From Cyanophora paradoxa CCMP329 (Eukaryota; Plantae; Glaucophyta), in contig QPMI01000631.1 in NCBI GenBank assembly GCA_004431415.1, positions 1 through 64,000 of the forward strand: DNA of 64,000 nucleotides, in the 5' to 3' direction. The stretch's first letter is position 1. Each line of letters opens with the position of its first letter. The notes beneath the pieces were generated by a model that saw nothing but the letters and a program-made list of their open reading frames with translations, made no database searches and was not told where the DNA came from. Made by a program: the position numbers and the translations under genes. Positions 1 to 20,900 of this stretch are shown piece after piece.

Positions 1-56
1 TGATGCGATATAAACGCGGTTTATAAAAATTATCTCTCATTCTAATAAAGATACAA

Positions 57-619
57 ATGCCTCCCCAAACGAAAAGATAGGGATCCCAGCTGGGGCTGTT
101 GGCTATTCAGGTGGTGGAAACAGTGGATCTATTAACACTGAACCAATGAAATTCAATGGTATGAATGAAGTCCCCTCAACCCCAAGAAGAACCCCTTAAT
201 GCTGCCTATGAGGAATCAGTCGATGACAAAGCCCCAGTTCAACTGCTGACAACTCAACATCTCACCAGAAGCCTCAAAATGAAGCTGTTGCTGAGGGTGC
301 CAGGCGAATTATTGGTGCTGCTGATGATAAAGGTTTAGGCTTGCAAGATCTTCACTGGCTCGCAAAGGTGAGGGTCTTAGTAAGGAATCGACAAGGTAAT
401 CAGTCTATGGCTGGTGAAGTCACATACAAGACTGCTCCCACTCAAAATATTCATCGAATTCCCAAGGCTCAATGGGATGAGATGACTGCTAAACTCAAAG
501 ATCTGGAAGCCAAATCAAGTGCCTTGGAGCAGTATGTTACTGAGAAGAAAGAGAGAGCCAAGCTAAAGGAGATGCTTCGAAAGGAAGTTTATAAATGGGA
601 TCACTGGTGTCCCAGATAA
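57..619 (+). CDS. Hypothetical element protein with coiled-coil C-terminus; frameshifted 5' half
   Basis: ATG at 57 behind the element promoter-like motif. Reading continues by frame-hopping (MPPK..IGIPAGAVGYSGG..QEEPLNAAYEES..GARRIIGAADDKGLG) into ORF 341-619 (WDEMTAKLKDLEAKSSALEQY). May continue to ~1089. Confidence 0.45.
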
Positions 620-1094
620 ACAGTTTATTGCTAAGAAGAGAACCAAATCGATGAGCAAGCAGTAGATTGAAATGAAACAAAGACCCAGAAAGGAACCATT
701 GAACCTGGTGCCACCAAAGCTGAGTAGAAAGGGAGTTGCCCCCAAAAATATAGAAAGACGAGTTTGGCTTTAATTATCTCTGTTTCTATTAGAGACATGG
801 ATATAATACGAAAGTTTTCGAGATGTTCAGTCTGCATGTGGTGAGCAATTGCCACAGTGGATCGCTGTGAGACAAGAGTGGAGTTTTGAGATGTCAGATA
901 ATGAGGATAATGCTTCTGAAAGGCAAGAGAGAGAAGGAGATCAACAGTTTCTGTGGAGTCAATGCAAGCAGACCCACAGAGTATACATATGAGCAACAGG
1001 AGTATCCAAGGAGAAGTTCTTTACCTGGTGAAACGTTTTCTCAGCAAATATTAATGGAGGATACAATTAAGTTTGATCGAGTTTACTAGTGATG

Positions 1095-1268
1095 ACTTTA
1101 ACTGAGGGTGCTATTAGACACATTCTAGCAAAGCAGAAACGATATAGAGAGGACCCAGCATATAGAGAGTATAAGAAACAACAAGCCCTGGCATCCTATT
1201 ATCGCAGAAAAGCCCAAAAAGAGGAGAGAGACCCAGAGGGAGACCGATTAAATATTATTGCCTACTGA
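1095..1268 (+). CDS. Small basic protein, possible AT-hook in an alternative frame
   Basis: Manual translation MTLTEGAIRHILAKQKRYREDPAYREYKKQQALASYYRRKAQKEE... A shifted frame at ~1229 reads RPRGRPIKYY (AT-hook core). Confidence 0.45.
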   Translation, partial: TLTEGAIRHILAKQKRYREDPAYREYKKQQALASYYRRKAQKEERDPEGDRLNIIAY

Positions 1269-1444
1269 TAGTAGCAATGGACCCACAGGTCTATAAGATA
1301 CTTGAGAAAAAGCGTCTCAGTATGCTACTGAGGCAGCTATTAAAGTTTACAGACAGGAACTGGTGTTCGCAACAAAAAATGACTTAAGAAAAAGTAGATA
1401 GGTTGTATTGAGGAAAAATTATTTCGTATCTACTATTAAAGAGA

Positions 1445-1836
1445 ATGCCGAATATCCGCAAGATACTCACAGATGATGAAAAAGCAGAAAGCAACTGAGA
1501 AAAGGAGCAAGATGCCAAAGAAAACGCGAAGCCTATCATAAAAAGAAGGAGGAACGATTATCCCAAGGAGCGCTACAGTTCACACACCAGAAGAACTCAA
1601 AAGATGCCCTCAGACACCAGAGGAAATACAGGGAAAAATGAAGAATATCGCGAACAGAAAAAGGCGAAAGCGCTGGAATACTACCACAAGAAAACGAACT
1701 ACCAAGACACCCAAAGAGCATAAACCGGTTGGAAGACCTCGGAAATATATCGAAGAATAAATTCTCGATCGAAACAAATTTTGTAGAAATCGATTTGATC
1801 GGAGGCAAAAAAATGACAGCTTTCTTCCCTTTTTAA
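1445..1836 (+). CDS. Small K/R/E-rich basic protein, frameshifted
   Basis: ATG 1445 behind the same promoter-like motif. Fragments MPNIRKILTDDEKAE, RHQRKYREK, EEYREQKKAKALEYYHKK resemble the upstream small ORF. Confidence 0.4.
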
Positions 1837-1973
1837 AAACTGTACCTATATAATCGAGACAGTATCCCGACCCAAAACTACTTAAGGACTTGGCAAATAA
1901 TAGGTATATATAAAGACAATTCTCCTTCCGAAATTATTTTCTTCGTAAAGGTAGAAGTCCCCCAAAATCGAAA

Positions 1974-4547
1974 ATGAACAAAATCGAGAAAATCGCCACC
2001 CTGTTGAAAATGCTACATTCCTTAGTACTCTCATTGGTGATCGCAACAAGGTCACCCATGTATGATTTCTTGAAGATGCCTTGAAGCCATTGATAATAGC
2101 AAGGTTAAGACCTGGGCTGAATGCATTCAGCCTGAACAAGTCACCAGAGTTTACCTGGACCTGGATAAATTCGCTGATTTGAAGGAGAACATTGCTTGAA
2201 AACTATGCTGAGCTGAAACTGTTGTAAGAGAGATGAGAGATAAGCTATGGAAGCGATCTGGACCATTCGATTAACGATATTGCTGTTGCAGTTCGCCATA
2301 GAAGGGTTTATTTGATCAAGGAGGATGTCACCAAGTTCAAGATCTCAGCCCACTTATCATTAAATCGCTTGCATGCAAACATGAAGATATCCCAAGCTTT
2401 TCAAAGCTATGGGATTGGTGAAAAATGAGGATTATGACAGTGGAGTTTACAGCTCCACACAGAACCTTATCTGCCTCAATTGCTGCAAAGGTGAGACTCT
2501 GGATGCTCAAAATAAATCAAAGAAAGATGTTGATAAAAACGTTTGCTTTAAGAAATTCGTTGACTGTGACAAAGTGTTAATGCGAAATGAGGACTTCTTT
2601 GTATCTTTCTTCTCAGCTTCTACTAAACTTGTGATGAATCGAATATTTCTGCATTCGCAAATTATAGCCTGAGCCAAAACCAGTTAAAAAGGAGCCAAAA
2701 AGTGATAAAGTGAAGACTGAGAAGGTAGAAGCTGAAAAAGACACTGAACCGAAAATCCTGTTACTTTCGAACTGCTACAAAGTGTTATAATGGGTCTCAA
2801 TGCTGAAAGAGCCAGCGAGTATAAGACTTGGATTGATGTTGGACTGGTCATCATCAATGTTGGGGAAGACAACAAATTTACCCTAAAATGCAGGCTGAAC
2901 TCTTCCACCAATTCTCAGAACAGAGTGACAAGTATGATTATGATGAATGCCAGGAAAAGTTTACACAGCTTCGCAGAAGCAAGAAGAAGGCTGAGCCTGG
3001 CAAAGTGTTGACCTTCAAATCCTTGGTTTATTGGTTGAGCAAAGATAACAATGAGCTTTTCAAGGAACTCTTCCCCAAAAAGTATGCATTCCTACCAGAG
3101 GACACAGATGAAATCGATTACAAGACTGCAAGTATCCTCCTTTGGCTGAACATTACAATGTGCATAAGAGGTATTTCAATGCTCGCATGCATCATGTTGA
3201 AAATGTTGGTTGTGTGATGCTCTGGGATGAACAACTACTTTGCTGGATGCCCAAAGACATTGGAAAACTGTCTACAAAGCATTTCCCCCACTTGATGCAT
3301 AAGGTGATTGTGAATGAGGGGACAGATAATGAGAAAGAGAAATGGGAGCAATCATTTAGGAAATGGATTGTGGATCCAACAGCCACAAGATCAACTTACA
3401 TGGATTTCCTCCACTCCTGCTACTCTCAGTGCAAAATGCAAGTCTGTATTTAATCTCTATCCAGGAATGAAGGTCGACCATCAGCAATTCGAAAATGCTC
3501 CAGAGGATGTAACTGCTGAGATGATTAAGCCTTTCCTTGATCACTTGTTCTTAATGTCTGGTGAGGATCAAAATACCTATGAATATCTGTTGAAATGGTT
3601 TGCCCACATGCTGCAAAGCCTGGGGAACTCAATGGAGTATCCTTAATCTTCATTGGTGAACAGGGAACTGGTAAGAATGTGTTGGTTTGATACTTTCCAA
3701 AAGAAGATACTTGGAGATGCCCTGAGTTATGCAACTGGTAAGCCAAAAGAGATCTGTTTGGTCGATTTGCCCACAATAGAGAGGATAAGATCTTGATTGT
3801 TTGAATGAAGCCTCAGGCAAGGACACATTCGAAAATAATGATATGCTTAAAGATCTCATTACTTCTGATAAGATTGTTATTGAACACAAAGGGATAGATT
3901 CATACACAAAAGCAACTTTGCCAGGATTATATCACCAGCAATAACAACATTCCAGTTAAAATTGAAGCTGGAGATAGGCGATTTGTGGTTGTTGAAGTTA
4001 GTAAGAAATTCGCAAAGGATAGGTCATACTTCCTTCCACTTGTAAAATGGCTTAATGATCACTGCAATATTCGAAACATTGCCCACTATTTGAGAACCAA
4101 AGTTGAATGTGAGGATGTGAACTGGATTGCTGATAGACCCCTTACAAATAAATACTATTTAGCCAGCAGGTGTGCGCTCCAATCATCCTTATGTTCACTA
4201 AGTGGCTTGTGGATCGAGGCTTAATTTCCGAGAATAAATGCAAGTCTGGTAGCCTTGTGGAAACCTGGAAATGGTTCCAGGAGTTCATTACCAGCAATAA
4301 ATATAAAAACGATTATAATAGTCGCAGATATTATACAGAAATGCGAAGTGTTACATATATCCAAGTGAAAACTACAAATGGTAAACAATACTATCATTTC
4401 CTATTCCCACAAGTATTTGAGGAATTCAGAAAGATGAAGCTTGTAGATGATGAGACCATTGAGGAAGAAGCTAATCCAAGGATGAAACAAGAACTACCTG
4501 CTGCTGATCCTGATGCATCAGATTATGACTCTGATGTTGAAGTTTAG
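1974..4547 (+). CDS. D5-like primase-helicase: AEP primase + PriCT-2 + SF3 helicase (multiple frameshifts in this sequence)
   Basis: AEP motifs RVYLDLDK (~2146-2170), KISAH (~2339-2353), DYDSGVYS (~2430). PriCT-2 EYKTWIDVGLVI..LFHQFSEQSDKYDYDECQEKF..LTFKSLVYW (2790-3040). Walker A GEQGTGKN (3655), Walker B ILIV-NEA (~3790), motif C ITSNNNIPV (3931), GDRRFVV (3970). Split over at least 8 ORF pieces. Confidence 0.9.
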
Positions 4548-4555
4548 GTTTACTC

Positions 4556-4738
4556 AAAAGTGGACTCACAGTTGACTCAAATTTATCATAAAAGACCCAA
4601 ACAGTCTTTTATTTATGGTTTATTTATCGATTAGGTTGACTAAGTGGGGGGAGTTGACTCATTTTTTCACAGATTCTAAAAGAGGACTCTGCCCTAAAAA
4701 GAAATAAAAAGTGCCTCAACTCCACCACTAAGTCAACC
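4556..4738. promoter_or_regulatory. Origin-like iteron module, copy 1 (inverted 25-bp arms around an AT-rich spacer)
   Basis: GGTTGACTAAGTGGGGGGAGTTGAC (4634-4658) and its imperfect inverse (4714-4738) lie immediately downstream of the helicase stop. The left arm is the exact reverse complement of 10926-10950. Function is inferred. Confidence 0.6.
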
Positions 4739-4789
4739 AAAAAATGATTTAAGAGATAGAAAAATATATTTATATGTAACTAGTAAGAA

Positions 4790-5194
4790 ATGGCTGGAAC
4801 AGATCATGATTCTGGATCGATCTATATGATTGAGAGTCAGGAAATGAACAAAGTCTACATAGGAAGAACCTCACAGCCACTTCAAAAAAGATGGAGACAA
4901 CACAAATCAGGTCAAATGCCATCTACAGCAGACCTATGCAAGGCTTCTGATGTGAAGTTCTCAGTCCTGTATTCAAGTAAGAAGGGTGGGCATGAAGACC
5001 TAATGAACAGAGAAGCATATTACATGTATCTCTTTGAACCTTGGATAGTCAATTTACAAAAACCGAAATCCCGATTTAGGATTAATAGGTTTTTGCGATT
5101 CCATTCAGAGGAAGCCAGTGATCCATTAAAACATTTTAAATTGCGTTTAGAACATCCTAAAATAAAATATCCCCTTAGAATAGGAACAAGTTAG
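4790..5194 (+). CDS. GIY-YIG endonuclease
   Basis: GSIYMI-x8-VYIGRT, conserved Arg (KRWRQH), Glu (NREAYY) and Asn (IVNL). Confidence 0.9.
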   Translation: MAGTDHDSGSIYMIESQEMNKVYIGRTSQPLQKRWRQHKSGQMPSTADLCKASDVKFSVLYSSKKGGHEDLMNREAYYMYLFEPWIVNLQKPKSRFRINRFLRFHSEEASDPLKHFKLRLEHPKIKYPLRIGTS

Positions 5195-5199
5195 GAATA

Positions 5200-8100
5200 A
5201 TGCCCCGAATTACCAACAAACTCATAAGGGAGAAGAAATGGGAACTCATGGGATTGCTGGGAACACTTTATGCAGCCATGAAATTACAGAGGCTGAATAT
5301 GACCGGGAAATAGATTTAATTGCAAAGGGCAGACCCACTTTAAGCAGATTAACCAGAAAAGCAAATAACCTATATGATAAAATTGAAACCTTGGATGAAT
5401 TGGATAGGCTTAGGCAAATAGAACCAGATGCAGAAGATGGAACAGCCATGAATGAATTATATCGCTGGCTCACTTACAGAGCCAGAAGGGAAGTTGTTGT
5501 AGATGTGATTGAATTCCTGGATAGAATTGCTACATCCTTCCAAATCGATTAAAGCAGGGTTTAGATCAATTCAGGGCAATCAAGGTTCGCTTGTCTTTTA
5601 TCTGCAAGTTCGTTAAAGTGAGCAATCCACAGGTTTGGATATCGAAATACATTTACAGTGATTACTTTGTATTAACCAGGTCGAGAAATATTCGAACTGA
5701 GCTGAATAAAGCAGCCCAAATGTGTCAGGAGCAGATGAATGTGGTTGATAGCTATCGCTTAGAAAGAATTGAAATACTCAGAGTGGCTATTATGAGTTAT
5801 GCTCCAACTGGTGGATGCTTTCTACAAACCCCAGAGTGGATTGCTAGGAAGAGAGCCACAGTAAATATTCGAAATATTGATGATTCCTGCTTCGAAAATG
5901 CAATTTTGGCATATATTCACAGAAAAGCGATAAACTCCCATAAGAGGAATGAGCTTTCACAATATCGCAAATGGAAATACTCAGCAATCGCTTATAATCC
6001 GCTGGCTCTCAATTTCGATAACATCCATTCCCTGTTGCCTGTGATGCTGATATTATTGATAAATTCGAGGCTCAAAATGCAGGCATTAGCATTAATATAT
6101 TTGGAATCGATGGAGAGGTTATTTATCCCTGCATCAATCAAGTAACCCAGGCAGAAAGCATAAGGTTAATCTCATGCTGATATTTGATGATGAAGGGAAT
6201 GGTCACTATATTACAATCATGTCCCTTTCAAGGCTATTGAAAGTAAACCATGAAACATACAATGATCAGAAGTTACACTACTGTGACACATGCTTATCTC
6301 GATTCAGGTCTGAGGCTAAACTCACTGCTCATGTGGACTCAAACAGATGCATTGATTGGAGACTCTCAAAGGGAATCACACCAAAACCTGAGACCACCAT
6401 AGAGTTTGGACTGAAAAACCTCAGGAAAACTGTTTGGCTTCCTGTTGTGGTTTACTGCAAGATTGAACATAGAAGCATCCCCATTGATGCATCGAAATCC
6501 AAGAGGGAAGTCTCAGCAGTCAACATTAGAATAGTCACTGGGGCAGATGTTCAGGAGTTTCGATTTGAGGGTCAGGATCCAATGGGAGGTCTGTTTGAAT
6601 GCTTGGAGTCCAAAGCAAGAGAGCTAATCGATTTCCTGTTCACCAATATTCCCATGAATGAACTCACAGATGAGCAAAAGGCTATTTACAGAGCTACCAA
6701 ACACTGTTACCTTTGCAGTGAGAGGTTCACCAAGGAAAACTTCAAATGCAGGGATCATGATCACCACACAGGTAATTACATTGCACCTGCATGCAGAAAC
6801 TGCAATCTCCATAGGAGAATCTCAAAGCAAACAAAGTAGCAGTGGTTGTTGACCAAATGGATGACTGTGGGACATTCATTTTCAGAAAAATAGCAGGCAT
6901 GGGTGATAAAAAGCGAATCGAAATCCTTTCGAAAAACTTTGATCAATACCTTTCATTGCAATGGGGTCTTTACAAGTTCATTGATGCAAGTAATTTTATG
7001 GACTTTGGGGCTGCTGATGTAGATGAGTTAATGAGCAAATTCCAGGCTTTCAGAAGGCTTTCACACTCAGTATATGGATTGGACCCAGTTCATTATGTAT
7101 CTGCACCTGGGTTATCTTGGGATGCTATGCTTAGGACCACCAAGGCAAAAATAGAGCTTATAAGTGATGTAGAGCAATACGAATTTGTTGAGAGGGGAAT
7201 CAGGGGTGGCTTTGCAACAATGCCTTGTAGGTATGCTGAGGCTGATGGTGAGAACTCCCATATAATGCTGTTTGATGCTAACAACTTGTATGGCTACTGT
7301 TTGAGTCAGCCAATTCCAGTTGGTGATTTTAGATGGGAGACCGAATTCAACCCACAAGATAACAGATCCAGTTTCCTAGAAGTTGATCTGGATTACCCAA
7401 TTAGGCTATATCTAGACCACAGTGATTTCCCCCTAATTATTAACAAGAAAATAGTAGAATATGCAGAATTATCACAATATCAAAAGAGCCTATTAGATCT
7501 CTCAGGAGAAGAGCTTGATAAAACCCCAAAGCTAACTGCAACCTTTGGTTCTGTGACAAACTATGTGATTTCTGAGCCTCTCCTACAGTATCTGTTGGAC
7601 AAAGGGGTGAAATTAAAGAAAATTCACAGGGTCCTATCATTTACTGTGGCTCCTGTAATGAAACCCTATATTGAACTGAACACTGAGATGAGAAGGAAAG
7701 CAGTGAATAAATTCGAGGCTGATTTCTATAAGCTCATGAATAATTCAATCTATGGAAAATGCATTGAATCTTGCAGAGGTAGATCTGTGGTTAAGATTGC
7801 AAACAGTGAGAAACTGTTTATGAAATATGCAGCCTCCCCATTGGTGAAATCAACCAGCCCCATAAACGAAAAAGCAGTTGCCTTTGAGTTTTACATAAAG
7901 CATGTGAAGCTAGATAAGCCAGTTGCTATTGGGGCTTATGTTCTGGATGCAGCCAAACTGCATAACTACAAGTTCTTCTATGATACTGTAAGGTCCCAAT
8001 GGACAAAAGCAAAGTTACTATTCCATGATACTGACTCCTTTTGTCTATATATCGAATCTAAGACCCTACAAAAAGATATAGAGAATATATCCTATGCATT

Positions 8101-8440
8101 AGACCTTGGAGGTGATTCCAGAATGACCCCAGGTAAATACAAAAATGAAATGCCTGGCTCTGCTATATTGGAGTATGTGGGTCTGAGAGCTAAAGTTTAC
8201 AGTTTCAGAACTGCTGAGATTGAGAGGAGTAAGCTCTCTGGGACTTCAACTGAGGAACTCCAATTTAATGATTTTAAACAGTGTTTATTTGCAGGTATCA
8301 GCAAGACTGTGACTGCAAAGCAGAAAAGAAGGGCAGATCACACAATAATAGACACTGTGAGTAGAAGGGTTGCCCTAAACTGCTTTGATGCAAAGAGATA
8401 CATCTTACCAGATGGTATTAATTCTGTTCCTTTTAATTAA
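5200..8440 (+). CDS. polB: Protein-primed family B DNA polymerase (Polinton type) with C2H2 finger, EndoVII-like Zn insert and degenerate exonuclease; frameshifts near 5255, 5552, 6040 and 6835
   Basis: N-terminal GGCFLQTPEWIARKRATVNIRNIDDSCF, C2H2 CDTC..H, CYLC..RDHDHHTG..ACRNCN, YGLDPVHYVSAPGLSWDAML, GIRGG. Motif A DANNLYG, motif B KLMNNSIYGK, motif C HDTDS, GLRAKVYS. Long A-B and B-C spacers are typical of pPolB. Start at 5200 is inferred; the core 5591-8440 is secure. Confidence 0.93.
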
Positions 8441-8443
8441 GAG

Positions 8444-9828
8444 ATGCCAGCAACTGGAAGAATAGTTAGGAGAACCACTGAGCAACTACAAGGTAACCTA
8501 CTGCCTATCACAGTTCCCAAGGAGGAAAAGGGAGAATCTCGAATTGTAAAAAAGTCAGAGATGAAAGAGCTTGTCCCAGTAGAGATCCCAGTTGCTATTG
8601 CAGTGAAAGAAACCAGCAAGATTGCCAAGAGATTCTATGATGTGAGAACTGGTTACAAAGGGCTTCAAGCTATGAGGGCTGAGTTACCTGATGAATCCTA
8701 TAAGCAGTTGCAAGAGTTCTATAAAAACAAGAAGTTGTTCAGATCAATGCACCTGCTATATCTAGGAAGAGAGATCCCATGGTCCCAATTAGGCAACCCC
8801 TTGATACCTATGTGATTGATTTGCTCTTTTTCCCAGCTTATAAGAAACAAAACAATGGCTATGATACCTTTATGACTGCAATGGAATCTACACTGAGAAC
8901 TGGGTATATCATACCTATAAGGGATAAATCAGCTCTCACTACATTAGCTGCATTTAAACAGCTTGAAATGAGAGTGGCAAGACCCATAGTAAAAGTTCAA
9001 TCAGATGCTGGGAGTGAATTCCAAAATCGAATATTCCAGGAGTATTTATCTAGTAAATTCATAGAACACCAAGTGAGTGGAACTGCAGACCACAGAAGCC
9101 AAGGTCGAATTGAAGCCTTTAACAAGCAGATTAAGAGACTGATCACAAACTACTGCATAGCTAATAACACAGCTAGATTCTTTGATGTGTTAGGTGATAT
9201 TGAGTATAATTACAATAATACAGTCCACTCAGCTACTAAGATGAAACCAGGCGAAACTACAGAGGAGCATTATAGGTATATAGTGGGATTAGAAGATGAA
9301 AGATTCAAGAAATCAATAGCTTACCTTGATACCATGCAGCCTGGCATGTTTGTTAGAGTGAAAGTTGAGAAGAACCCCTTTGCTAAACAGGGTAACAATT
9401 GGTCTAGGATGGTTTACACTGTTGATAGTAGGGAAGGCTTTAAGTTTAAGCTAAGGAGTCCCACTGGTGAGATCATAGAAAACAGGTTTGCTTTCCATGA
9501 GCTGTTGCCTGTGAATGCAGTTGAATATCTAGAAACCCCTACAGTGGATGCCTTGGAGCAAGCTAAAGAGGAAGCCAGGGCTGATGCTGCTATAAGGAGA
9601 GAAGGCATAGAAGCTGCTAATGAAGTCCCAGATAAGCCTTTGATAGAGGCTAGAAAGGAGAAGGCTGGGAAAGTTAACAGGGAACTCAAAAAGCTCACCA
9701 TAGCAGGGACACAGAAACTTTCAGAAGTGAATAGCCAGAGATGGTATAATGACTTTCAGACTACTAAGGAGTCATATACAGCTCCTAAACCTCAAAGAAC
9801 ACTAAGAGAAAGGACCAAAACTAGCTAG
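8444..9828 (+). CDS. int: Retroviral-like (rve, DDE) integrase of Polinton type
   Basis: Catalytic triad YVIDL / QSDAGSEF / GRIEAFNK, YNNTVHSATKMKP, and an SH3-like C-terminal domain. One base missing in the A-run at ~8723-8727 would join ORF 8444-8815 to ORF 8779-9828 (FYKKQEVVQINAPA). No chromodomain. Confidence 0.93.
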
Positions 9829-10199
9829 TTTGCTAGGCAAAAACTCGTTTTTTCCAAATATATGTATGACTGATATACATATATGCATATGATATACACA
9901 TAGTCTTGTAGATCTTATCAAGCGCTTCACAGCGATATGCAGAACGTTGCGTTTTGATGATCTGGTGATGAGATATAACAGTTTGAAGATGCAAAAGTCA
10001 CTTGCCATAGTAGACTTGGTGAAAGACTAGCCCAGGAGTCGACTCGACGGTAAGCCGTTTTTGGCTCAGAGAATAGAGCGCTTGATTTCTGACTCCAACC
10101 TACGCGGTTCAAATCCGCTCGGGAACCTTTACTTCGTTCGCCGTGAAACTTGAAAAGTAAAAAAAAACGCGGTTTTTTCTAGATTAATGCTGTACCCGT

Positions 10200-10720
10200 C
10201 TAGAAAATCAATATTCACGTTTGCTACGATATCTCAACACCAACTTATCAAATCGATGCGCTTAAAACGTCATAAAATCGAGCATTTCAAGGCGGTCACA
10301 GCGCTTATGAGCCATATCGGAATTTCACTAACTGTAACTCCAAATCGCGATGAAACCGATTTTGAATTTTGATTTTAAATTCGATTAAAATCCATTAAAC
10401 GTGAGTTTTTAATATAGATCACTAGGAAGTTATCAAATCGATGCACTGACGGTCGAATATAATCCCATATATCATACATAACAATAACTTGCAATCACAT
10501 ATACGAATCGCAATGTGTATAGATCGCTATTACGATTAAAGCGAGTTTTGAAAATTCAAAACTAATTCGATTAAATTCGATTATAACGAAAGAGTTAAAG
10601 ATCTACATCAAATACTTATCAACTCAATCACCTGATAACATCGAATAATCAACCCAAATCTACTTTAGAGATAATCGTGATTACATATGTGAAATCATCA
10701 ATCTAACACTGCATTTAGTA
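10200..10720. repeat. About three degenerate ~185-bp tandem repeats in the element terminus
   Basis: TTATCAA(A/C)TC(G/A)AT anchors at 10245, 10430 and 10616. TTTTGAA..AATTCGATTAAA anchors at ~10360 and ~10545. Confidence 0.65.
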
Positions 10721-11480
10721 AGCATCTCCCCTTGATTCCCCCTATTATATTATATTTATATTTAAGTGGACTCAAGGTTGACTCATATTAATCGTAAAAG
10801 TAGTAAAAGTATATGGATTTTGTTACGAATTCAATGCAAGGGTTGACTAAGTGGGTTGAGTTGACTCAAATTTCACAGGAAATATTTGGGACCTAAAGTT
10901 TTCTAAAAAGGATTTGAAAAAATGTGTCAACTCCCCCCACTTAGTCAACCCTGACCATAAACAGTAAGGATTTGAGCTAACAAGTATCACAAAGTGAACA
11001 TTTTGAGTCCACTTAGAAGATCCACCTAACAATTTAGAGTCAAATTTACTTGGGAATTCGATTTGTATGAAAAAGTGAGTCCACCCTGACCATATTCAAT
11101 AAGCATTCCTCTTAATCCCCTTGTTTATATTTACATTGATTAATATTTAATACTAAGTGGACTCATGGTTGATTCATATTAATCGTAAAAGGAGTAAATG
11201 TATATAAAAATGTGACCATTTCAATGCTAAGGTTGACTAAGTGGGTTGAGTTGACTCAAATTTCAGAGGAAATTTTGAGATCCAAAGAATATTCTATAAA
11301 AGATTTTGAAAAATGTGTCAACTCCCCCACTTAGTCAACCCTGACCATATACAGTAAGCATTAGAACTTAAATGTATCACAAAGTGAACATTATGAGTCC
11401 ACTTAGAAGATCCACTTTTGAAATATAAGTTGATTTTGCTTGAAATTTCAAAGTTGATCTAAAAGTGAGTCCACCCTGAT
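10717..11480. repeat. Two ~390-bp direct repeats, each containing the origin-like iteron module (copies 2 and 3)
   Basis: TAAGTGGACTCA at 10763/11154 and AAGTGAGTCCACCCTGA at 11073/11463. Inner inverted arms at 10841-10865/10926-10950 and 11231-11255/~11317-11340. Outer inverted pair at 10763-10775/11003-11015. Confidence 0.9.
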
Positions 11481-11494
11481 TGATTATGGTAACA

Positions 11495-11866
11495 AAGTTG
11501 ACTAAGTTGACTAAGTTGAGTCATCTTAAGAAATTCAAGAAGACTAAGAGTTCAAAATGTTTATGAAAAGTGAGTCAACTTAGACCACTTATGGTAACAA
11601 AGTTAAATATTTAATTGATTTAATCGGAAAAGAACATGATTTAATCGAATTTATTGATATAATTCCGATTAGATTCATTTAGGATTCAATTAAGATTAAT
11701 CGAAGTTATAGATATAATTCCGATTAACTACAATTAAGATACAATATCGATTAATCGAGTTTATCGATATAACATCGATTAAATTAATTGAAAATGCATT
11801 TAAAAATATGAAAATTCATGTGAAAATTCAAATAAATTAATCGATTTTATTGATATAACATCGAAT
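11495..11866. repeat. Subterminal 9-bp iterons (AAGTTGACT x3) and four ~32-bp imperfect palindromes
   Basis: AAGTTGACT AAGTTGACT AAGTTGAGT at 11495. TTAATCGA-n-TTAT-n-GATATAA-nnn-CGATTA units at ~11641, 11696, 11751 and 11837. Confidence 0.85.
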
Positions 11867-11941
11867 CACACATATGAATATTCATATTTTAATCCTGAGG
11901 CGGAACGCCGAGGGATTAAAATATGAATATTCATATGTGTG
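11867..11941. repeat. Perfect terminal hairpin (29-bp arms, 17-nt loop) at the element/host junction
   Basis: 11867-11895 is the exact reverse complement of 11913-11941. The loop contains GGCG-GAA-CGCC, and each arm holds the 16-bp palindrome ATATGAATATTCATAT. Confidence 0.95.
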
Positions 11942-12952
11942 CGGCGGCGGCCGCAGCCGCCGGGCAGCGGAACCGCACTGTGACTCTCCTGGACGGCCTC
12001 ATGACGGCGCTCCGCTCGGCGGAAGAGGTTCTGGCCGCCGCCGCCGCGGCCGCGGTGCCGCCGCCCGCGGCGGCCAACGCGTCAGCATCTGCGCTCCGCG
12101 CAATCGCGGCGGGCCGCATGACCCCTGGCCTCTTCTTCCTCCTTGCCAACTCGTGCGAAATCGAACCCCTTAGGCCTTCAATAATTAATTTCTGCCTCCC
12201 TCCTACATCCTTCGGCTCCTCTGAAGCGCCCCGGCCCAGGATCATGGCGCTTCCCGGCGGCAACTCGGCCGTGGCTGCCAGTTTCACCGCCAGCGCAGTC
12301 CGCACTCTGGCTCTGCCCTTGTCCCCGCGCGCCTCAGATTGCAAGCTGGGCCGCCTGCAGATTCGCCGGCTGGACACCACACGCCGAACCTCCCTTATCC
12401 TCTTCTGCGCCGCCGCCGGCCTCGCCGTCTTCCTCATGCATGCCCGCCCGCCCCGCGGGGCGGCGCTCGGGCCGGCGCCCGCTCGCCCCGCCCTCACCGG
12501 GCGCCCAGATTTGGGGTGATGCTGCCCGTGCTCTGGTACGTGAGGCGGACCCGCGACCGCCTTCTCCGAGTTTTCCTGCAGGCTCGCGCGGCCCGTCCCC
12601 GCCCCTGCCGCCTCGAGTTGAAGACCCGGCTCAGATCCCGCGGAGCACGGCCCGCGAAATTCGAGCGGAAATCCTCGCCCCCCTTTTTCCCAAGCGCGAG
12701 CCGGGCCCCGAGCTCGAGGAGGCGGAACCAGATGCCGCAGGCAGAGAGGCGCAGGCGCAGGCGGGCGGTGTCAATGCGCACGCTAACGGGTCGGCCCCAC
12801 CCAACCTGCGATCGGACGAAGCGGCGGCGTCGTCATCGTCGGAGCGGGAGGGCGGGTCCGAGGGGGACGGGTCGGAGGAGGGGGAGGCCCCCGCGCTCGG
12901 GTCCGAGGCGCCGAGCGGCGATCGCGAGGACGAGGTGCGCCGCGCCGTCTGA
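11942..12952 (+). pseudogene. 3' part of a host gene apparently interrupted by the element
   Basis: An Ala-rich open frame runs right up to the junction with no host start codon. Host-type introns (e.g. GTGCGA ~12152..CCAG ~12239), a hydrophobic segment SLILFCAAAGLAVFL, and an acidic tail ending at TGA 12950-12952. Confidence 0.5.
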
Positions 12953-13186
12953 AAATTTCGGGATTGCGATGGAATTTCGAAGCTCGCCGATAAAGCCTGC
13001 TCGCTGCTCGCCTCTGCACGGCTTCCGCACCTCACTCCCCTGTGCGCCCCACACAGGCCGAGGAGGCGGAGGCGGCAATGGTCGACTACGCCCGCCTCGA
13101 GGCGCGCCTTGCTTTTATGAAAAATGATCAAGTCTTATAAGACATCATAAGAGTTTTGCGCCTCGCTCGGCTTATAGTTACGCTTA

Positions 13187-16100
13187 TGTTTAGCCTCGCG
13201 ATCGCTCATGGGGCGCAGATGGAGGGCGGGAGGGCCCGCGTCTTCGGTCCGCCACGCTCGCGCACCGCCACGTCTTCGGTCCGTCGCTCAGCTGCGCCGC
13301 CCGCCCGCCCGCAGGCCCTCTGGCGGGCCTCTTCCTCCGCTTCTGCCTCGTCGTGCTTCTGGCCCTCGGCCTCGTCGCCGCGTCCTTCGCCGTCGTTGTG
13401 GCGGCCACCCGCGCCGCGCAGCGCCGCAACCTCGTCTCCGCCGCTGTCCGGCCCCGCGCCCCTCCGGATCCGCCTGTTCCCTGGCTATGACCCGCCGCCT
13501 CGGCCGCGGGCGCTCACTCAAATGTCGCCGCAGGCGACAGCGACACAGTACGGCGCCGCGGCACTCGCGGCGCTGTCGGTCGAGCTCGCCGTCGCCCAGA
13601 CGCCCATCGGCGCGCCCTTCTGGCGCGGCGGCTTCAGGCAGGTCCAGGCTTTGATGGGGCGGATTGCGCAGGCGTTCCTCGCGAACGTGCGCCGCAAGGC
13701 CGCTGCGCTTGCGGCGATCCCCCCGCCGCCCATGGCCACCGACGCCGCGTGCAGGGCACCAATGCGATCCTCTTTGGCGGTTCCGTCCTGACACTCCCGG
13801 GGACCATCGGTGAGCTCGAGGGCCGCTCTAGATTCGAGGGCCGTGACTAGATTTTAGATGCGCTAGGCACTTCACCTCTCTCCTAATCGTGACGCTCCCT
13901 TCCAACAGACACCGGTGTCAACGGCATCGACAGTCACCTCTACTACGACGTGTCGGCTGCCGTCGACGCCACCCGCCGCTTCGCCGTCGCCCGTGCGCGG
14001 GCCGGGCGGGCCTGCGCATGAGCCCCCTCCGGTGCTGGCGCCAATCGCGAGCCGCCGCAGTGGCGGCGCAGGCACACGAGAAGACGGACCAGGCGATCGC
14101 GGCGCTCTCGCTCTGCTTCGTGATCGCCGTCCCGCTCCTCGTCTGCCTCTACGCCGCCTCCCTCGCCCCCTCCATTCACGTGCATGCGGCCCCACCCCGC
14201 GGCCATCGCTCACATTGAGCCGAGTATCGAGCCGTGTCCGGATCCGCAGCGGGTCAAGAGCGAGTTCCTGGGCGATGCGAGCATGCTTCTCTACATTCCC
14301 GCCGAGGCCCGGGAATTATATATGGAATTTTGGAAATGTGGTGGAGCTCGAGCCGAGGCCTGAGCGTACGTATACGCGCCCCCGCAGGTCCTCGGGGATC
14401 TGCCGGCGCTGCGGCGGCTCGTGCGGGCGAGCTCGCTGGCGGGGTCGGACCCCCTCGCGGTCCTCGCCTCCACCCGCGAGCGCAACGAAGCCCTCCTGCG
14501 GGCCTCCCTCGGCGCGGCCCCGCTCGCGAACCCTCTCCATCCCGCTCGCCATTTGCAACGCTAACCGACGAGCGCGCGTGCGCAGACCCAACGTTTATCG
14601 TCGACGCGGAGGGCGTCATTCAGGCCCGTCCCGCTGTCGCGCCGCTCTGCTTCGGGGGCCTTTCAGCGCGCCGCAGAAAGCCAACGGGGCGGCGGCTGCG
14701 ATCCTCAACTGCGGTGCCCCCGAGGACCTCGCGGGGTCCCGCCTCGAGGAGTTCTTCCCCTCCCTGCGGCTCGCGCCTCACGGCCGCCGCCTCAGGTGCG
14801 CGGGCCGATGCGAGGCTAGGGCCCTCCGCAGCTGAGGCCGCCGGCGCCCCTCGCAGCGCGGGGTCGATTGAAGAGGTCACCCACAGCGTCCCTGTCCGGA
14901 GCGGAGTCATCGGTGGCAACCCCGAGGCTCGCCCGCGCCCTTCCCCGTCTCTGCATGTTTGTTTGCAATTGGTTCAAGTGCCCGGCAGGAGGACTCGATC
15001 GAAGGGGTGCGGCGGGGCGGCGAGCGCTTCCCCGCGCAGGTCTCCCTCGGCGGGGGCCTCACCGAGAGCACCGACCGCGAACGTGCGCCCTCTAATTCGA
15101 TCCCGAGCCCCGCCTGAAATCGAACCCCGCCCCGCCCCGCCCCGCCGGGCTGCCCGCCTGAGCTCGGCGGCCGTAGGGGAGGAGCCCTTCTTCGTGGTGG
15201 TGGCGAGGGACGTGTCGGCGCTCGTCGCAGAGCAGCGCGCCCTCCGCGCCGCCGTCGTCCGCCCCGCCGCCCTAGGCCCTCGCTCCGCCCCGCTCCGCCA
15301 GATTTGACTCTCTCTGCTCTGCAGGAGCGGGCGGACGCGCTGCTGCGGACGATGGTGCCCGCCGACATCGCGCGCCGCCTCATCGCCGGCGAGCAGCGCA
15401 TCGCCGACGTGCGCCGGCGCCCGCCGCACGGGACGGGACGAATTCGAAGCTTTCTCCGACGGCGCGTGCGCAGCTGCTGGACGACGCCACGCTCGCCTTC
15501 TTCGACATCCCGGCGCGCCGGCGCCCCACGCACTTCGAACTCCTCTCCTCTCTCTGCTGCCCGACCCGGCCTCTCTTCTGACCATTCGAATTCTTTTCCG
15601 GCCTGCCCGCGGCCGCAGGGCTTCGCTGCGCTCTCAGCGGAGATGCCGCCCGCGCAGACGGTCGCCCTCCTCCAGGCCCGCCCCCGCCCCCGCCCCCACC
15701 GCCCCCCGCCCCCGCCGGCCCGCTAAGGCGTTGGGGGCGGGGGCGGGGGCGGCGTGCGTGGGCGCAGTCGGTCTTCCGCGCCTTCGACGCTGTCAACGAT
15801 CGCTTCCGCGTTGAGAAGGCGCGCGCTGGCCCCTAGCCTCCGGGCCGGGCCGCCGGGCCGCCGCCATATGCATCGCCCACCGAGTGCCTCGCTGAATGCC
15901 GCACCCGATCGCTCGCGAGCAGGTGAAGCTTATCGGGGACACGGTACGTAATTATAATCCTTAGGAATTTACTTTCAAGTCCTTACGCACGGCCGGCGCG
16001 CGCCCCCAACGCGGTGCCCCCCGGCCCGGCCCGGCCCGCAGGCGTTCTACATCACGCGGGAGCCACCGGAGCAGATGGTCGAGTTCTGCCTCGCTGTCTT

Positions 16101-17445
16101 CGCGGCCATGCGGGTCCGTTGTATTAGAAGTAGTGCGGGTTGTTATACTAGAGCTATTACTAGAAGTGGGTTTAATCGTTGAATATCGATAGGAAACCAT
16201 TAAGTTCGCGTTGAGCTCACCTCGCCCTCTGCCTCGCCGTCTAGATCTTCGCGACCATGCGGGTCTGTTACATATCTGTTAGCTCTAGAAATTTGTGTAA
16301 TCGTTTGATAGGAAACTTTTATTAAAAAAATATTGAGTTCACGTTGAGCTCACGGCATTCGACCTGGCCCGGCATATGCAGGAGGTCTCCTCGGTGGCGG
16401 GTGTCGATCTCAAGCTCCGGTCCGCCCCGCACGGGCCGCGCCTCGCCCGCTCGGGCTCTGCCCCCGCCCTCGAGCTCGCGGATCGCGCTCTGACGCTCTC
16501 GAGCTCGCTCTCGCTCTCGCTCGCAGCGCCGGACTCAACACGGGGTCCGCGCGCCCATTCGCGCCCCCGGCTCCCTCCCACCGTCTGACAGCCGCCGCCG
16601 CCGCCCCGCAGCTCGGTGGTTGCAGGCGCGCAGGCCCGGTGGCCCGGGACGACGCGGGGGGGCGCTTCCGCCCTTCGAATTCACTGACGCCCGCGGCGCG
16701 CGCGCGCGGGGGCCGCAGGGGTGATCGCGACGAGGAAGATCGCGTGGGACGTCTACGGCGACAGCGTCAACCTTGCCTCCCGGTGCCGCCGGCGCCCGCT
16801 ATAGAAGAAATCAACGAATTCGAAGCTAAACGGGGGCTTTAAAAGACATTCGCTCTTTTCTGAAGACATGTGGTGCCGCCAGCGCCGCCGGCTCGCCCCG
16901 CGCGCCCCTCGCGCCCCTCGGCCCCACGCCCCGGCCCGCCGCGCAGGATGGAGAGCACGGGGGTGCCCGGCCGCATCCAGGTCTCGTCCGCCACCTACGG
17001 TCCGCCGCTGTATATTTATCCCCGCTTTAAGATTTCTATAGCTAAGAACAGCTAATAAGCCATTAAAGAGATTAATTCGACGTGGTTCGGCTTCCTTTTG
17101 GTCGCCTCCGCCACCAATATATAGCTATCGTCCCCGGCCCGCACCTCCTCGAATTCAAAATAAATTTAAAGGTGGTCCGCGCAGAGCGGGTGCGGGACAT
17201 GTACGAAATGGAACCCCGCCAAGTGGAGGCCAAGGGCAAAGGGAGAATCCAGGCTCGCGTTCCCCGTGGAGGCGGCGCGGCGCGGGGCTCACAAGACGCG
17301 CGGCGCGTATCCTGCGCAGGCGTACCTCGTGGGGAGGCGAAGGGTGCGGGAGGCGGAGCGCGACCCCCTCTCTGCGCCCGCCTGCCCCCCGGCCCCGAGC
17401 GCGCGCTCAGCCGCGGGGCCTGCAGCTGAAGCGCCCGAAGAGTGA
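13187..17445 (+). CDS. Two-TM sensor + PAS + class III adenylyl cyclase (multi-intron)
   Basis: TM helices RFCLVVLLALGLVAASFAVVV and IAALSLCFVIAVPLLVCLY; PAS-like PTFIVDAEGVIQ..FFVVVARDV. Cyclase: [58 protein letters not shown], KGKG. Lys/Asp specificity pair indicates ATP. Start is approximate. Confidence 0.88.
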
Positions 17446-17990
17446 TTTGAATTCCCGGGAGTCCGCTGCTGTTTCACGATGAGCCTTGTAATATATAGAG
17501 CTTTCAACGCTGGGGCTTCGAACCCCGCTCGTAACTTATAAGCCGCCCCCGTTTTGAGTCTTGGGAGTGCCCACGCCCCATTATCGACGGCCTGACGTCG
17601 GACGGGCCGTCTCACTGAGTCAGGCACGTCTGTCACACTGTGCGACATGTACTCTGATGTACAGGCCTAGCTATAGGCACTCCTTCGGTGTAGCTGCGCA
17701 TGCCACTATCATAGTATAGCTAGCTGGCCCAACTTGGCAAGAAGACCTGAAGACGCGTCAGTGGCGGCGTCACCTGTGACGGCCCTGACGGGTCGCTTGC
17801 AATTGCACTTGATGCATGCGCACCGATCGCGATCGACGCTCTTGCCAATTTATATTAAAAAAACACCCGGTACCGGTACAGGTACATTGGCGCTGGGGTA
17901 CAGACGCACAGTCTTGAAGCCGCATCGCCGCAGCGCCAGCTGCACCCCCTTTCGATGCCGATCCAGCTTCCTCACAACTAGCGCTAGGGA

Positions 17991-20900
17991 ATGGATGCGC
18001 TGCTGTCGTCGACGCCGGAGCAAGCGGCGCTCGCCGAACTCGTCGCCGAGTGGGAGCGCTTCCGGGCCGGCGGTGTAGCTCCCAGCAAGAAAGCCTACGC
18101 ACTGTGCATCAGCCCCGGCGTCACGGCCCTCCTGGGCGCAGCCGCCGCGGAGCACGACGGCGCCAACGAGCGCGTCTTGCAGGGGGCGGAGGCGGAGCTG
18201 CTCCTCTCGCGTGGGCTCCTGGACTGGTCCTTCGTGCGGCGCGCTCTGGGGTCGGCAGCCGCGGCGCCGCCGCCAGCCGACATCGAGGACGTCGCCGCGC
18301 GGGAGGCGGAGGCCGCCGCCTTTCGGCACGCCGCCCGCAGCGTCGCATGTGCGCCCCACGATCTCGGCCCGCGATCTGCGCACCGCTCACTCACCCGGCC
18401 CGCCGCCGCGGCGACCGCGCGCGCTCAGCGGCCGCCCGGCACGCGCACGACTTCCTCGCCGATGTGGACGCCGGCCGCCTGCGCGAGCTCTACGGGCCGC
18501 AGCTGGAGGCGCTGGGCGACCGCCGGGCGACCGTCGAGCTCCTCTACAGCGCGCACCGCTCGGGGCAGCACGCTCTCGCCTTCCCTGGCCTAGTGCGCCC
18601 TCCCTTCCGGCCGGCCCCGGCCGCGGCTTCGGCGTGCGCTTTCGGGCGCGCCGCGCCGCGCCTCACGCGAGCCGCGCGCGCAGGTCGCGCTGCTGGAGCG
18701 CGTCCTGTCCGACCTGTACTACCGGGACCAGCCTGGGAGCGCGCCCCCGCACCTCCTCAAGGCGAGCGAGCGCCAGACCAGCCCCTCCCCGCCCTCCGCG
18801 CGGGCTCGAATCCCGCGCAGGAGCTTCTCGTCAGCGAGTGCGCGCGGGCGGCCCTGGGAGAGGACGCGATCTTTGCGCTCCGATGCTTCGTGGGGCCCCC
18901 CACCGGCCTCAACCTGAGGCGCGCCGCGCCCCGTACCCCCCGTGCCCTCCGGATCCATACCCCCCTCCCCCTGACCCGGCTACGCGCGCAGGAACATCGT
19001 ATGGTGCGCAGTTCTCGGCGCGCGCATCCTTCGAGCGCGCGTACCCCCCGACACGCCGACATCCGCGTACCCGGCAGGCACGGCTTCCTCTCCTCCTCGG
19101 AGCTCGACGCGACCTTCTCGTGCGGTCCTGTCCCTTCCGTACCCCCCCCCCGCTCATCGCGTACCCAGGTCCCTCCTTTTCGTCGTGTTCTTCACAGTCA
19201 TCTCCGCCGTCTCCGCCGGGCCCCGTGGGCCCCGCCCCGCCTTCGCACGTACCCCCGCTTCCTTCGAACCCCACGCCGCCGCCCTCCGGCGCGAGGGACT
19301 ACCCCCCCTTCCGCTCCCCTCCCCCACCCGCCTCCGCCGCCTCGTCTCGAACTCCCTTTTCGTCCTGGGGGGTAGGGAATCCGACCTCCTGGCCGCTCTC
19401 GAGGTTCGAGCGCCCGTATCCCCTTGTTCCATCGTACCCCCGTTCATCGCCCCCTCCGCTCCTCCAGGACTTCCGAGCGGGGCGATCCCTGCAGAGCATC
19501 GTTCGCCTCCTGCCGCTCTTGGAGATGTGCCTGCGGTGCATTGTACCCCTCCCCCGCCACTCTTGTTCCCCCTCCCCTTCAAATGACCGATGCGGGGGTG
19601 TGGCAGCCGCATCTTCGTCGCAGAGAACGGTCTTCCCCTCGGGGCGATGTGGGCCGAATCTTGCGCCCTCTGTGCGTCCGCCTCCCCCCCTCCACACCTG
19701 TACCCCGTGGGGTTTCCGAAGCGGGGTACGCTTCCAGACACGACGCTGGACGATGTGCTGGGGGCCGGCGTGTGCTTCACAGAGGCTGGCGAGCGCAACG
19801 GGGCCCGTCGGTGGGTGTACCCCTGGAGTCCTCCCCCTGCCCCCCCACCCCCCCCCCCCCTCTCCTGGAACTGGGCGCTGCGGCCGTGTTTGATGTTCGA
19901 CTCGCCGCAGCGCGGGCGGCGGGGGCCCCTTCGCGGGTCCTCGGACAGGGGGGCGGCCCAACCTGCTCCGCCCCGCCATCGGCGCGCCGCTCGCGCCTGT
20001 ACCCCCACCCCGTGGTCGCCGCTGACCTTGTACCCCTCAGGCGAGGGTCTGGTCTGGGCCCTGTACGACGCTGTTCTGGCCTACGACGGACCCCGGCTGA
20101 GGCGCGCCGCGGGCCCTCTGGAGGCGCACGCACGAACCGAAATCTGATACCCCTGCAGGGACCGTGTAGCCCACGGGGAGACCGTTGAGGGCGGCGTACC
20201 CCCCGAGGCGTGCCAGTACCCCTGAATCTCTTCCCACTCTTCTCTGAGCGGCAGTGCAGGTCTCCGAGCTTCTGGTGGGGGCTACCGTTGCGCTCTGCGC
20301 CCGCTTCGAGCCGCCTGCTGCCGGGGAGGGGTGCGAGGAACCCGAGCTCGAGTCGATTGCCGCGCACTTTCGGGGGTACCGCTCCGCGTTCCACCCGCTC
20401 AGCATCCTCCGGAGGGCCATCGAGGCGAGCCGTGTACCCCCCTCCACTCCTCCTGCCCCCCCCCCCCTCTTACTTTTTCGCCGCAGGACGCGGAGGAAGA
20501 GGCGGGGCGCCTGGGGGCGGAGGTGGGGGCGGCCCTCGCGGCGCGGCCCGTCCGCCACTCCTGCCGCCTCCTGGACGTGCGCTACCCCCCCCCCCCCCCC
20601 CCCCCCGGCGGCTCACCTGAGGGCGGACCAGGCGGACCAGGCCGAGTACTTCGAGCTGGCGGCGGACGGCTCCGACGTCCTGTGCGCTCAGATCAGATCA
20701 GATTCGATCTGATCTGGTTTGATCTGAGTCGGCCCTCGCGGTCCGGCCCGGCAGGCCGGCGGCGGGCGCGAAGGCGGGGCCGACCCTCTCGGAGCTCGCG
20801 GCGCGCGCGGCGGAGCTCTGCGCTTCGCTTCGGGCCTCAGGCGGCCCCTTTGGCGTGCGTCGGGTCGGGTCGGGTCGGGACCCGTCCGCTCTGCTCTGAT

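Follow-up and report, generated by a model that had tools for sequence, protein, structure and literature searches.

How does a mobile element that encodes both a protein-primed DNA polymerase and a primase–helicase start copying its DNA, and do short repeats behind the helicase gene take part? The question is raised by the first 64,000 nucleotides (nt) of contig QPMI01000631.1 (forward strand), the whole of which was analysed and is here called the window. Positions 1–11940 are AT-rich (32–43% GC per kb), and the adjoining host DNA from 11941 on has 58–77% GC. Judged by its predicted genes (DNA_pol_B_2, GIY-YIG and PriCT_2 matches plus a sub-threshold rve match), the AT-rich part is a Polinton-like element, which bears out what an earlier reading of the letters alone (the sequence-only reading) had proposed. 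We find that the exact matches to a defined word, RGTKGACTMA, lie in two non-coding blocks of this element, one just past the primase–helicase stop and the other at the element's end, and we propose, tentatively, that the word clusters may be iteron-type replication origins read by the C-terminal domain of the element's own primase–helicase.

RGTKGACTMA has 20 exact matches in the window, and all 20 fall within 4559–4661 or 10765–11580, inside the non-coding blocks 4547–4738 and 10765–11589. Allowing up to one mismatch raises the number to 36, with 6 in the first block, 22 in the second and 8 that are scattered, 4 of them over coding parts of the element and 4 over the 52 kb of host DNA. Shorter or related words behave alike: GTTGACT occurs 17 times against 2.99 expected (100 shuffles, maximum 7), 14 of them in 4571–4737 or 10777–11579, and AGTKGACTY occurs 10 times against 0.75 expected, each time inside the two site blocks. 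The sites and the gene that they follow are arranged as listed here.

1950–4547 (start approximate), forward strand: primase–helicase gene (archaeo-eukaryotic-type primase, PriCT_2, D5-type superfamily 3 (SF3) helicase), from profile matches and motifs
4176–4547, forward strand: C-terminal domain of the helicase, candidate DNA-binding domain, a single intact frame of 123 amino acids plus stop
4547–4579, forward strand: three direct sites, one mismatched, from the helicase stop codon on
4634–4738, no strand: module M1, two forward sites and, beyond a 49-nt spacer with 29% GC, reversed ones; starts 87 nt after the helicase stop
10763–11479, no strand: 390-nt tandem repeat, 1.8 copies, 83% matches, with 4 forward then 4 reversed sites per unit
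10841–10950, no strand: module M2, in the 390-nt tandem repeat, at the peak of summed contig depth
11231–11340, no strand: module M3, in the 390-nt tandem repeat
11495–11519, no strand: perfect 9-nt repeat, 2.8 copies
11496–11589, no strand: module M4, three tandem forward 9-mers, a 44-nt spacer, two reversed sites

Each of M1–M4 comprises two or three forward plus two reversed sites around a spacer of 22–29% GC, and as single-stranded DNA all four fold more stably than shuffled versions (z of −5.2, −6.5, −7.3 and −2.9 for M1 to M4, respectively). The first sites overlap or follow the helicase stop codon at 4545–4547, in keeping with the sequence-only reading, which had placed one copy right behind the helicase gene. 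That reading had described a module of about 105 nt in three copies. All three are present, with the arms as it gave them, and 4634–4658 is indeed the exact reverse complement of 10926–10950 (25 of 25 positions); 'triplicated' is nonetheless inexact, because there are four inverted modules, two of which (M2 and M3) form one tandem duplication. The shared block is also larger than had been thought, at around 190 nt, and includes on its left a direct site pair (4559–4579), which begins 12 nt past the helicase stop and aligns as a homologue of 10765–10785 and 11156–11176. The M1 block is therefore a partial copy of the 390-nt unit that covers only its first ~190 nt, and the inner four sites of each 390-nt unit make up the module first described.

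The copies, which lie 6.2 kb apart, have not diverged evenly. Between the internal copy and the two terminal ones, 56 of 60 and 55 of 60 site columns are identical (92–93%), compared with 57 of 127 and 62 of 127 non-site columns of the shared block (45–49%; Fisher p = 3e-11 and 3e-9), in a comparison whose alignment was anchored on the site blocks and whose word had been defined with all copies in view. The earlier description of conserved arms and diverged spacers thus holds, with a faint residual similarity left between spacers (36–66 of 2000 shuffles equal the observed score). The spacer of M4 is unrelated to the others, and its words are identical in kind. This site-specific conservation suggests that selection acts on protein-binding sites, keeping the words, their orientation and an AT-rich gap of 44–55 nt while leaving the remainder free. 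That the sites exist, where they lie, how they are arranged and how much better they are conserved than their surroundings are direct observations. The AT-richness of the spacers, which the sequence-only reading had also stressed, is real but ordinary for its surroundings: their 22–29% GC compares with 38.5% for the element and 32.5% for its non-coding end, placing them in the lowest 2–8% of element windows and in the lowest 8–31% of non-coding-end windows.

From these features we infer binding, the identity of the binder, melting and initiation as follows. Binding of the 9–10-bp sites would fall to the domain behind the SF3 helicase core. Since two or three sites on each side point in opposite directions, a pair of helicase rings would form head to head over the 44–55-bp AT-rich spacer and open it, and the fused primase would then prime synthesis. 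Opposed site sets lend themselves to such paired loading of SF3 rings, as in the origins of papilloma- and polyomaviruses. One module would serve beside the gene, as in SaPI-, P4-type and pRN1-type replicons (SaPI, Staphylococcus aureus pathogenicity island), and three further modules would serve 350–1100 bp from the element's end, inside a probable terminal repeat. Helicase loading at the end would support, or replace, the protein-primed start expected of the polymerase.

The protein proposed as the reader belongs to the D5/P4 type of primase–helicases. Its PriCT_2 match reaches 25.5 bits (cut-off 22), DUF5906 matches at E 4.8e-4, below its cut-off, and the DNA primase family phrog_1156 matches at E 8.3e-5; a Walker A motif (GEQGTGKN), a DRRF motif and a DxD motif can be read in the three-frame translation. 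In a language-model search with the helicase tail (4176–4544), the nearest clusters carry PF03288 Pox_D5 (score 0.94), which is present in 16–46% of the members of those clusters. A single-sequence AlphaFold2 (AF2) model of the tail, with a low mean confidence (pLDDT 51), has the order H-H-H-H-E-E-H, that is, four helices, a beta hairpin and a helix. A PF03288-type winged helix follows the helicase core in pRN1 ORF904 and P4 alpha, according to the available part of PMC2777425.

Further evidence comes from other copies of the element. Fourteen sequencing runs of one organism contain at least 60% of the sampled words, and contigs of five of these runs were mapped: X1, X2, X3 and X14, listed as DNA or of unspecified kind, and X15, which is RNA only by guess. 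Summed contig depths are not copy numbers and serve here as hints. On the element they run to thousands, against 16–105 on the host flank (X1, X2, X3 and X14), an excess of tens to hundreds of times in these four runs, which implies that the endogenous family is very large or that the cultures contained free copies. Along the element, the depth varies as follows.

Helicase: 1,800–4,600
Bin with M1: 1,200–2,200
Polymerase–integrase: 3,400–19,000
10748–10859 (site pair plus left arm of M2): 18,500–47,000
Neighbouring 10580–10691: 300–600
Second tandem unit: mostly near 500, range 0–830

The depth of the M1-type module is about equal to that of the helicase gene. At the other end, at least four different AT-rich left flanks adjoin the M2-type unit at 10696–10721, so several subfamilies share this unit; contigs also diverge at 10884, inside the spacer, and the loose ends at 10915 and 10950 correspond to M1 in reverse.

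Several of these results favour iteron origins served by the primase–helicase. All exact word matches lie in two non-coding blocks, one of them at the helicase stop; conservation is specific to the sites, and M4 shares the words despite its unrelated spacer; M1 and the helicase stand at 1:1 in contig depth; and the gene encodes a D5/P4-type enzyme whose tail lies nearest to PF03288-bearing clusters and is modelled as helices followed by a beta hairpin. The layout agrees as well. In the available part of PMC9371898, the SaPI ori lies immediately downstream of rep, has an AT-rich centre with at least two iterons per side in opposite directions, and is read by a winged-helix C-terminal domain; position, AT-rich centre and opposed iteron sets are all matched here, as the sequence-only reading had claimed.

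Other results weigh against the same proposal. The tail gave no match to Pfam even at E 10, nothing at E ≤ 0.001 among PDB structures in Foldseek (best E 2.5), and a best Z of 4.8 in VIA wide, where no winged helix stands out; an exhaustive phmmer search of 1.84 billion representatives returned two spurious matches, both to repetitive proteins, PDB sequences yielded designed repeat proteins only, and a word-based search among longer proteins with a piece of the helicase core gave 40 candidates, none significant. In this copy the helicase gene is frame-broken, with at least five breaks. Polymerases of the protein-primed kind are expected to initiate at the extreme termini, with no need for an iteron origin, and the core of the word, TGACTCA or TGACTAA, equals the sites of basic leucine zipper (bZIP) proteins of the AP-1/GCN4/Yap type. 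Neither in meltability nor in AT content do the spacers stand out from much of the non-coding end; of all 40-nt windows in the element, the one with the lowest duplex stability begins at 4739, just past M1, within a segment that is missing from some copies. The M2-type unit has, as a hint from summed contig depth, about 10 times the depth of the helicase and 2–4 times that of the polymerase; so many family members may have the module but not this type of helicase. Finally, relatives outside this organism, in which covariation of site and protein could be followed, were not found: the arm pattern had 0 matches in metagenome contigs, a 15-mer of the arm hit 15 IMG/VR loci with one match each and no clusters (chance level by estimate), and four IMG/VR loci with polymerase relatives (32–34% identity) held no comparable site clusters among the five largest repeat families and pairs per locus. 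Taken together, the Polinton-like element, the position, the SaPI-like layout and the conservation of sites in the original origin interpretation stand, whereas the count of three does not, and the depth hints are not what a helicase-specific reading predicts.

A broader version of the proposal, which we put forward with still more reserve, is that the element might be a replicon with two modes of initiation: protein-primed starts at its ends, plus iteron origins for its own primase–helicase, a single one next to the gene and several more in either terminal repeat. If so, the module would be the first defined cis-acting replication element of Polinton- or virophage-type elements, and a handle for replicating helicase-less copies in trans.

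The blocks that hold the sites have to be seen in the setting of the whole element. Positions 9829–11940 form a non-coding end of 2.1 kb that is made of repeats and is probably a terminal repeat. We place the element's right end at about 11940, where GC rises from 32% to 70%, because a contig of run X15 tracks the element up to 11940 and then carries a different flank. Besides the tandem repeats given above, this end contains the following features.

10243–10650, no strand: 185-nt repeat, three copies
11641–11891, no strand: 55-nt repeats with a second word, TTAATCGA
11867–11941, no strand: terminal palindrome of 75 nt, near-perfect, with 36-nt arms and a 3-nt centre; fold z −12.6

The window has 10 occurrences of the second word, TTAATCGA, where 1.5 would be expected; eight of them lie in the non-coding end (11641–11891 and 10381–10574), within the 55-nt and 185-nt repeats, and none is near M1, a distribution that suggests a site for a second, different binding protein. 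One contig has the outer arm of the terminal palindrome alone, behind a different sequence (loose end at 11905), and for this reason the last ~36 nt may be a conserved tip and the inner arm a family-specific fold-back. Rfam microRNA matches over 11866–11942 were set aside; they are far under the gathering scores and reflect the hairpin only. At 10020–10135 there is a tRNA-like T arm (GGTTCAAATCC), possibly part of a decayed tRNA-derived piece; neither ARAGORN nor Rfam calls a tRNA in 1–13000 at normal thresholds, and lowered thresholds give an unconvincing call near 9950–10130.

Between the primase–helicase and this end lie the other genes of the element.

4790–5194, forward strand: GIY-YIG nuclease gene (Pfam GIY-YIG, 41.7 bits)
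5238–5552, forward strand: short open reading frame (ORF)
5525–8440, forward strand: protein-primed family B polymerase with an Endonuclease_7-like insert (DNA_pol_B_2, 53.8 bits; Endonuclease_7, 24.4 bits)
8441–9828, forward strand: putative rve-type integrase in two frames (rve, E 1.8e-4)

The DNA_pol_B_2 match of the polymerase lies well over its cut-off (53.8 against 25.8 bits), and 3006 of 7997 scored candidates are relatives at E ≤ 0.001; the best 120 share 33–39% identity, and one relative carries the name of a mussel genome. The HNH-type Endonuclease_7 insert at 6096–6839 is common to many of these relatives and would place a junction-cutting nuclease beside a palindrome-rich genome. 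The rve match of the integrase (22.2 bits) is below the cut-off of 32.6. Helicase, polymerase and integrase are each broken into several frames in this copy; because single-letter indels within these three genes distinguish the contigs of other copies from the window, the breaks may reflect either decay of this copy or assembly errors. No capsid, protease or packaging ATPase gene was detected within 1–11940, and the ORFs in 1–1900 have no Pfam match. Upstream of the primase domain, two overlapping frames at 1499–1760 are rich in lysine and arginine; like the ORF at 227–619, they match no family. Neither the GIY-YIG protein nor the product of ORF 5238–5552 resembles the helicase tail in BLASTP (E 0.44 over 10 residues, and no alignment, respectively), and the short ORF had no usable match in a protein atlas. 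Megablast of 1–11950 against a phage collection matched nothing, and the nine longest host ORFs have no Pfam match at E ≤ 1e-5.

Gene content varies among copies. A contig of run X2 joins 4726 to 5157 with 28 other letters between them and so lacks the GIY-YIG gene; this gene and its upstream AT-rich tract (4739–5156) are an indel in the family and behave like a mobile nuclease cassette beside the module. In a contig of run X15, 8259 is joined to 10238, and the integrase is missing together with the rest of 8260–10237. Because variants without the GIY-YIG gene and without the integrase exist, the family is a mosaic, whose most widely shared piece is the M2-type unit and in which the M1-type copy goes with this helicase.

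In other explanations the helicase is not the reader. Throughout the family, some other protein may bind the sites in the terminal repeat, for instance the integrase, a packaging or tethering protein or a factor that assists protein-primed initiation, and the copy behind the helicase gene would be a retained extra site; arrays in viral terminal repeats offer an analogy. We regard this as somewhat unlikely, while acknowledging that 22 of the 28 clustered sites are in the 2.1-kb non-coding end, that in runs X1, X2, X3 and X14 no part of the family has a greater depth than the M2-type unit (2–4 times the polymerase and integrase and about 10 times the helicase) and that its at least four AT-rich left flanks make it common to several subfamilies. 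The presence of TTAATCGA and of the terminal palindrome likewise makes the end a mosaic of cis sites. This account leaves unexplained, however, why there should be a copy with conserved sites right at the helicase stop, 7 kb into the element, and it names no binder; moreover, site sets that face each other over a spacer are found more typically in origins and operators, and the end sites of transposases point one way. Also unlikely, in our view, is that the modules are transcriptional control elements (enhancers, promoters or operators) with TGACTCA or TGACTAA cores to which factors of the host or of a helper virus would bind; expression of the genes that follow M1 would be driven from there, and that of the outer genes from the terminal repeat. 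The position of M1, 52 nt upstream of the GIY-YIG start codon, fits such a role, as does the variant without that gene, where 16 other letters separate the right arm of M1 from 5157, which lies about 80 nt before the ATG at 5238. The direct site pairs have A/T-rich, TATA-like tracts beside them, the least stable window begins right behind M1, the core of the word resembles bZIP sites, and the X15 contigs are deepest over 10009–11259. Yet the word stands at only two places and not before each gene, its conservation spans 10 nt and 9-nt tandem units and so exceeds the 7-nt bZIP core, and no gene lies downstream of M2–M4 on either strand inside the element; that X15 is RNA is a guess, and one of its contigs has host flank.

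The history of the element could also account for the internal copy without giving it a function: M1 would be the scar of a recombination, within the shared terminal unit, that joined a helicase-plus-end module to a polymerase–integrase-plus-end module. M1 spans just the first ~190 nt of the 390-nt unit, contigs diverge within the module at 10884, indel variants begin at 4726, and the summed depths of helicase and polymerase differ several-fold, a pattern to be expected in a family of mosaics. In a neutral scar, however, decay should be even, and here the sites are 92–93% identical against 45–49% elsewhere, which makes this origin of M1 improbable. Least probable of all, and very unlikely, is an account of the ~105-nt module as a miniature inverted-repeat transposable element (MITE) inserted into the element three times. 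Inverted arms of 25–35 nt around a short spacer and the very high summed depth of the M2-type unit would suit a MITE, and the sequence-only reading had pointed to dispersal through host DNA with target-site duplications as its mark. We observed neither: the three copies lack matching target-site duplications (...ATTA/AAAA..., ...CAAG/CTGA... and ...CTAA/CTGA...), and no module copy occurs in the window's 52 kb of host DNA. In addition, the similarity among copies extends 75 nt to the left of the arms, the alternative flanks in the reads are AT-rich like the element and not GC-rich like the host, and the M1-type copy is no deeper than its neighbours.

Whichever explanation applies, the modules bear on how Polintons, virophages and Polinton-like viruses copy their DNA, and on why some of them have both a protein-primed polymerase and a primase–helicase. 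Because this element has an intact candidate binding domain and four modules built from a defined word of 10 bases, a simple binding and mapping experiment can address the question. If one of the rival explanations is true, the modules mark end-recognition or control sites of a very abundant element family.

Among known systems, the element as a whole is closest to Polintons (Mavericks), with which, as described in the available parts of PMC10120064 and PMC5499653, it shares a protein-primed family B polymerase with an Endonuclease_7-like insert, a putative rve-type integrase and a sharp-ended AT-rich insertion in host DNA. It differs in its added D5-type primase–helicase and GIY-YIG nuclease; capsid genes and the left end lie beyond the window. 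The two added genes recall mavirus-type virophages. Full-text literature searches found no description of iterons in Polinton-type elements. The nearest idea in print, in the available part of PMC11296320, is that the inverted repeats of Polinton-like viruses double as an origin for the adjacent primase–helicase; this 'replicative end module' hypothesis has helicases and end repeats exchanged as modules, with homing nucleases nearby. That text, as far as available, names no iterons and concerns elements with tyrosine recombinases and without a protein-primed polymerase, whereas the locus described here has a defined word, a defined layout and an internal copy.

For the module itself, the closest parallel is the SaPI/PICI Rep–ori of Staphylococcus aureus (PICI, phage-inducible chromosomal island), where the available part of PMC9371898 describes an ori directly downstream of the initiator–helicase gene and opposed repeat sets, at least two per side, around an AT-rich centre. 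Rep, too, is an SF3 helicase, fused to a primase in SaPI5, and its C-terminal domain reads the repeats, the role predicted for the tail here; the words are 5–6 nt long in SaPIs and 9–10 nt in this element (PMC9371898, same part). Unlike a SaPI, the element is Polinton-like, resides in a GC-rich genome, presumed from the type of element to be eukaryotic, and has its own protein-primed polymerase and integrase; its module is repeated in the element's end, and there is no sequence similarity to Rep proteins. Phage P4 alpha likewise joins primase and SF3 helicase in one protein, with a winged-helix C-terminus (available part of PMC2777425) that is only a candidate here. P4 is, however, a circular bacterial replicon without a protein-primed polymerase, and the searches with the tail revealed no homology of the C-terminal domain. 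Its ori and crr carry the same short iteron at two places several kilobases apart, one of them made of direct repeats, much as in the layout reported here. In herpes simplex virus, inverted sites for the UL9 helicase flank an AT-rich spacer in oriL and in the two copies of oriS, so that one copy is internal and two lie in repeated ends; UL9 is a superfamily 2 helicase, and the genome type is another, of unrelated elements. By analogy, therefore, we infer that the module functionally resembles the SaPI Rep–ori, the P4 ori/crr and the herpesvirus oriL/oriS, and that it is not a member of any of them by descent.

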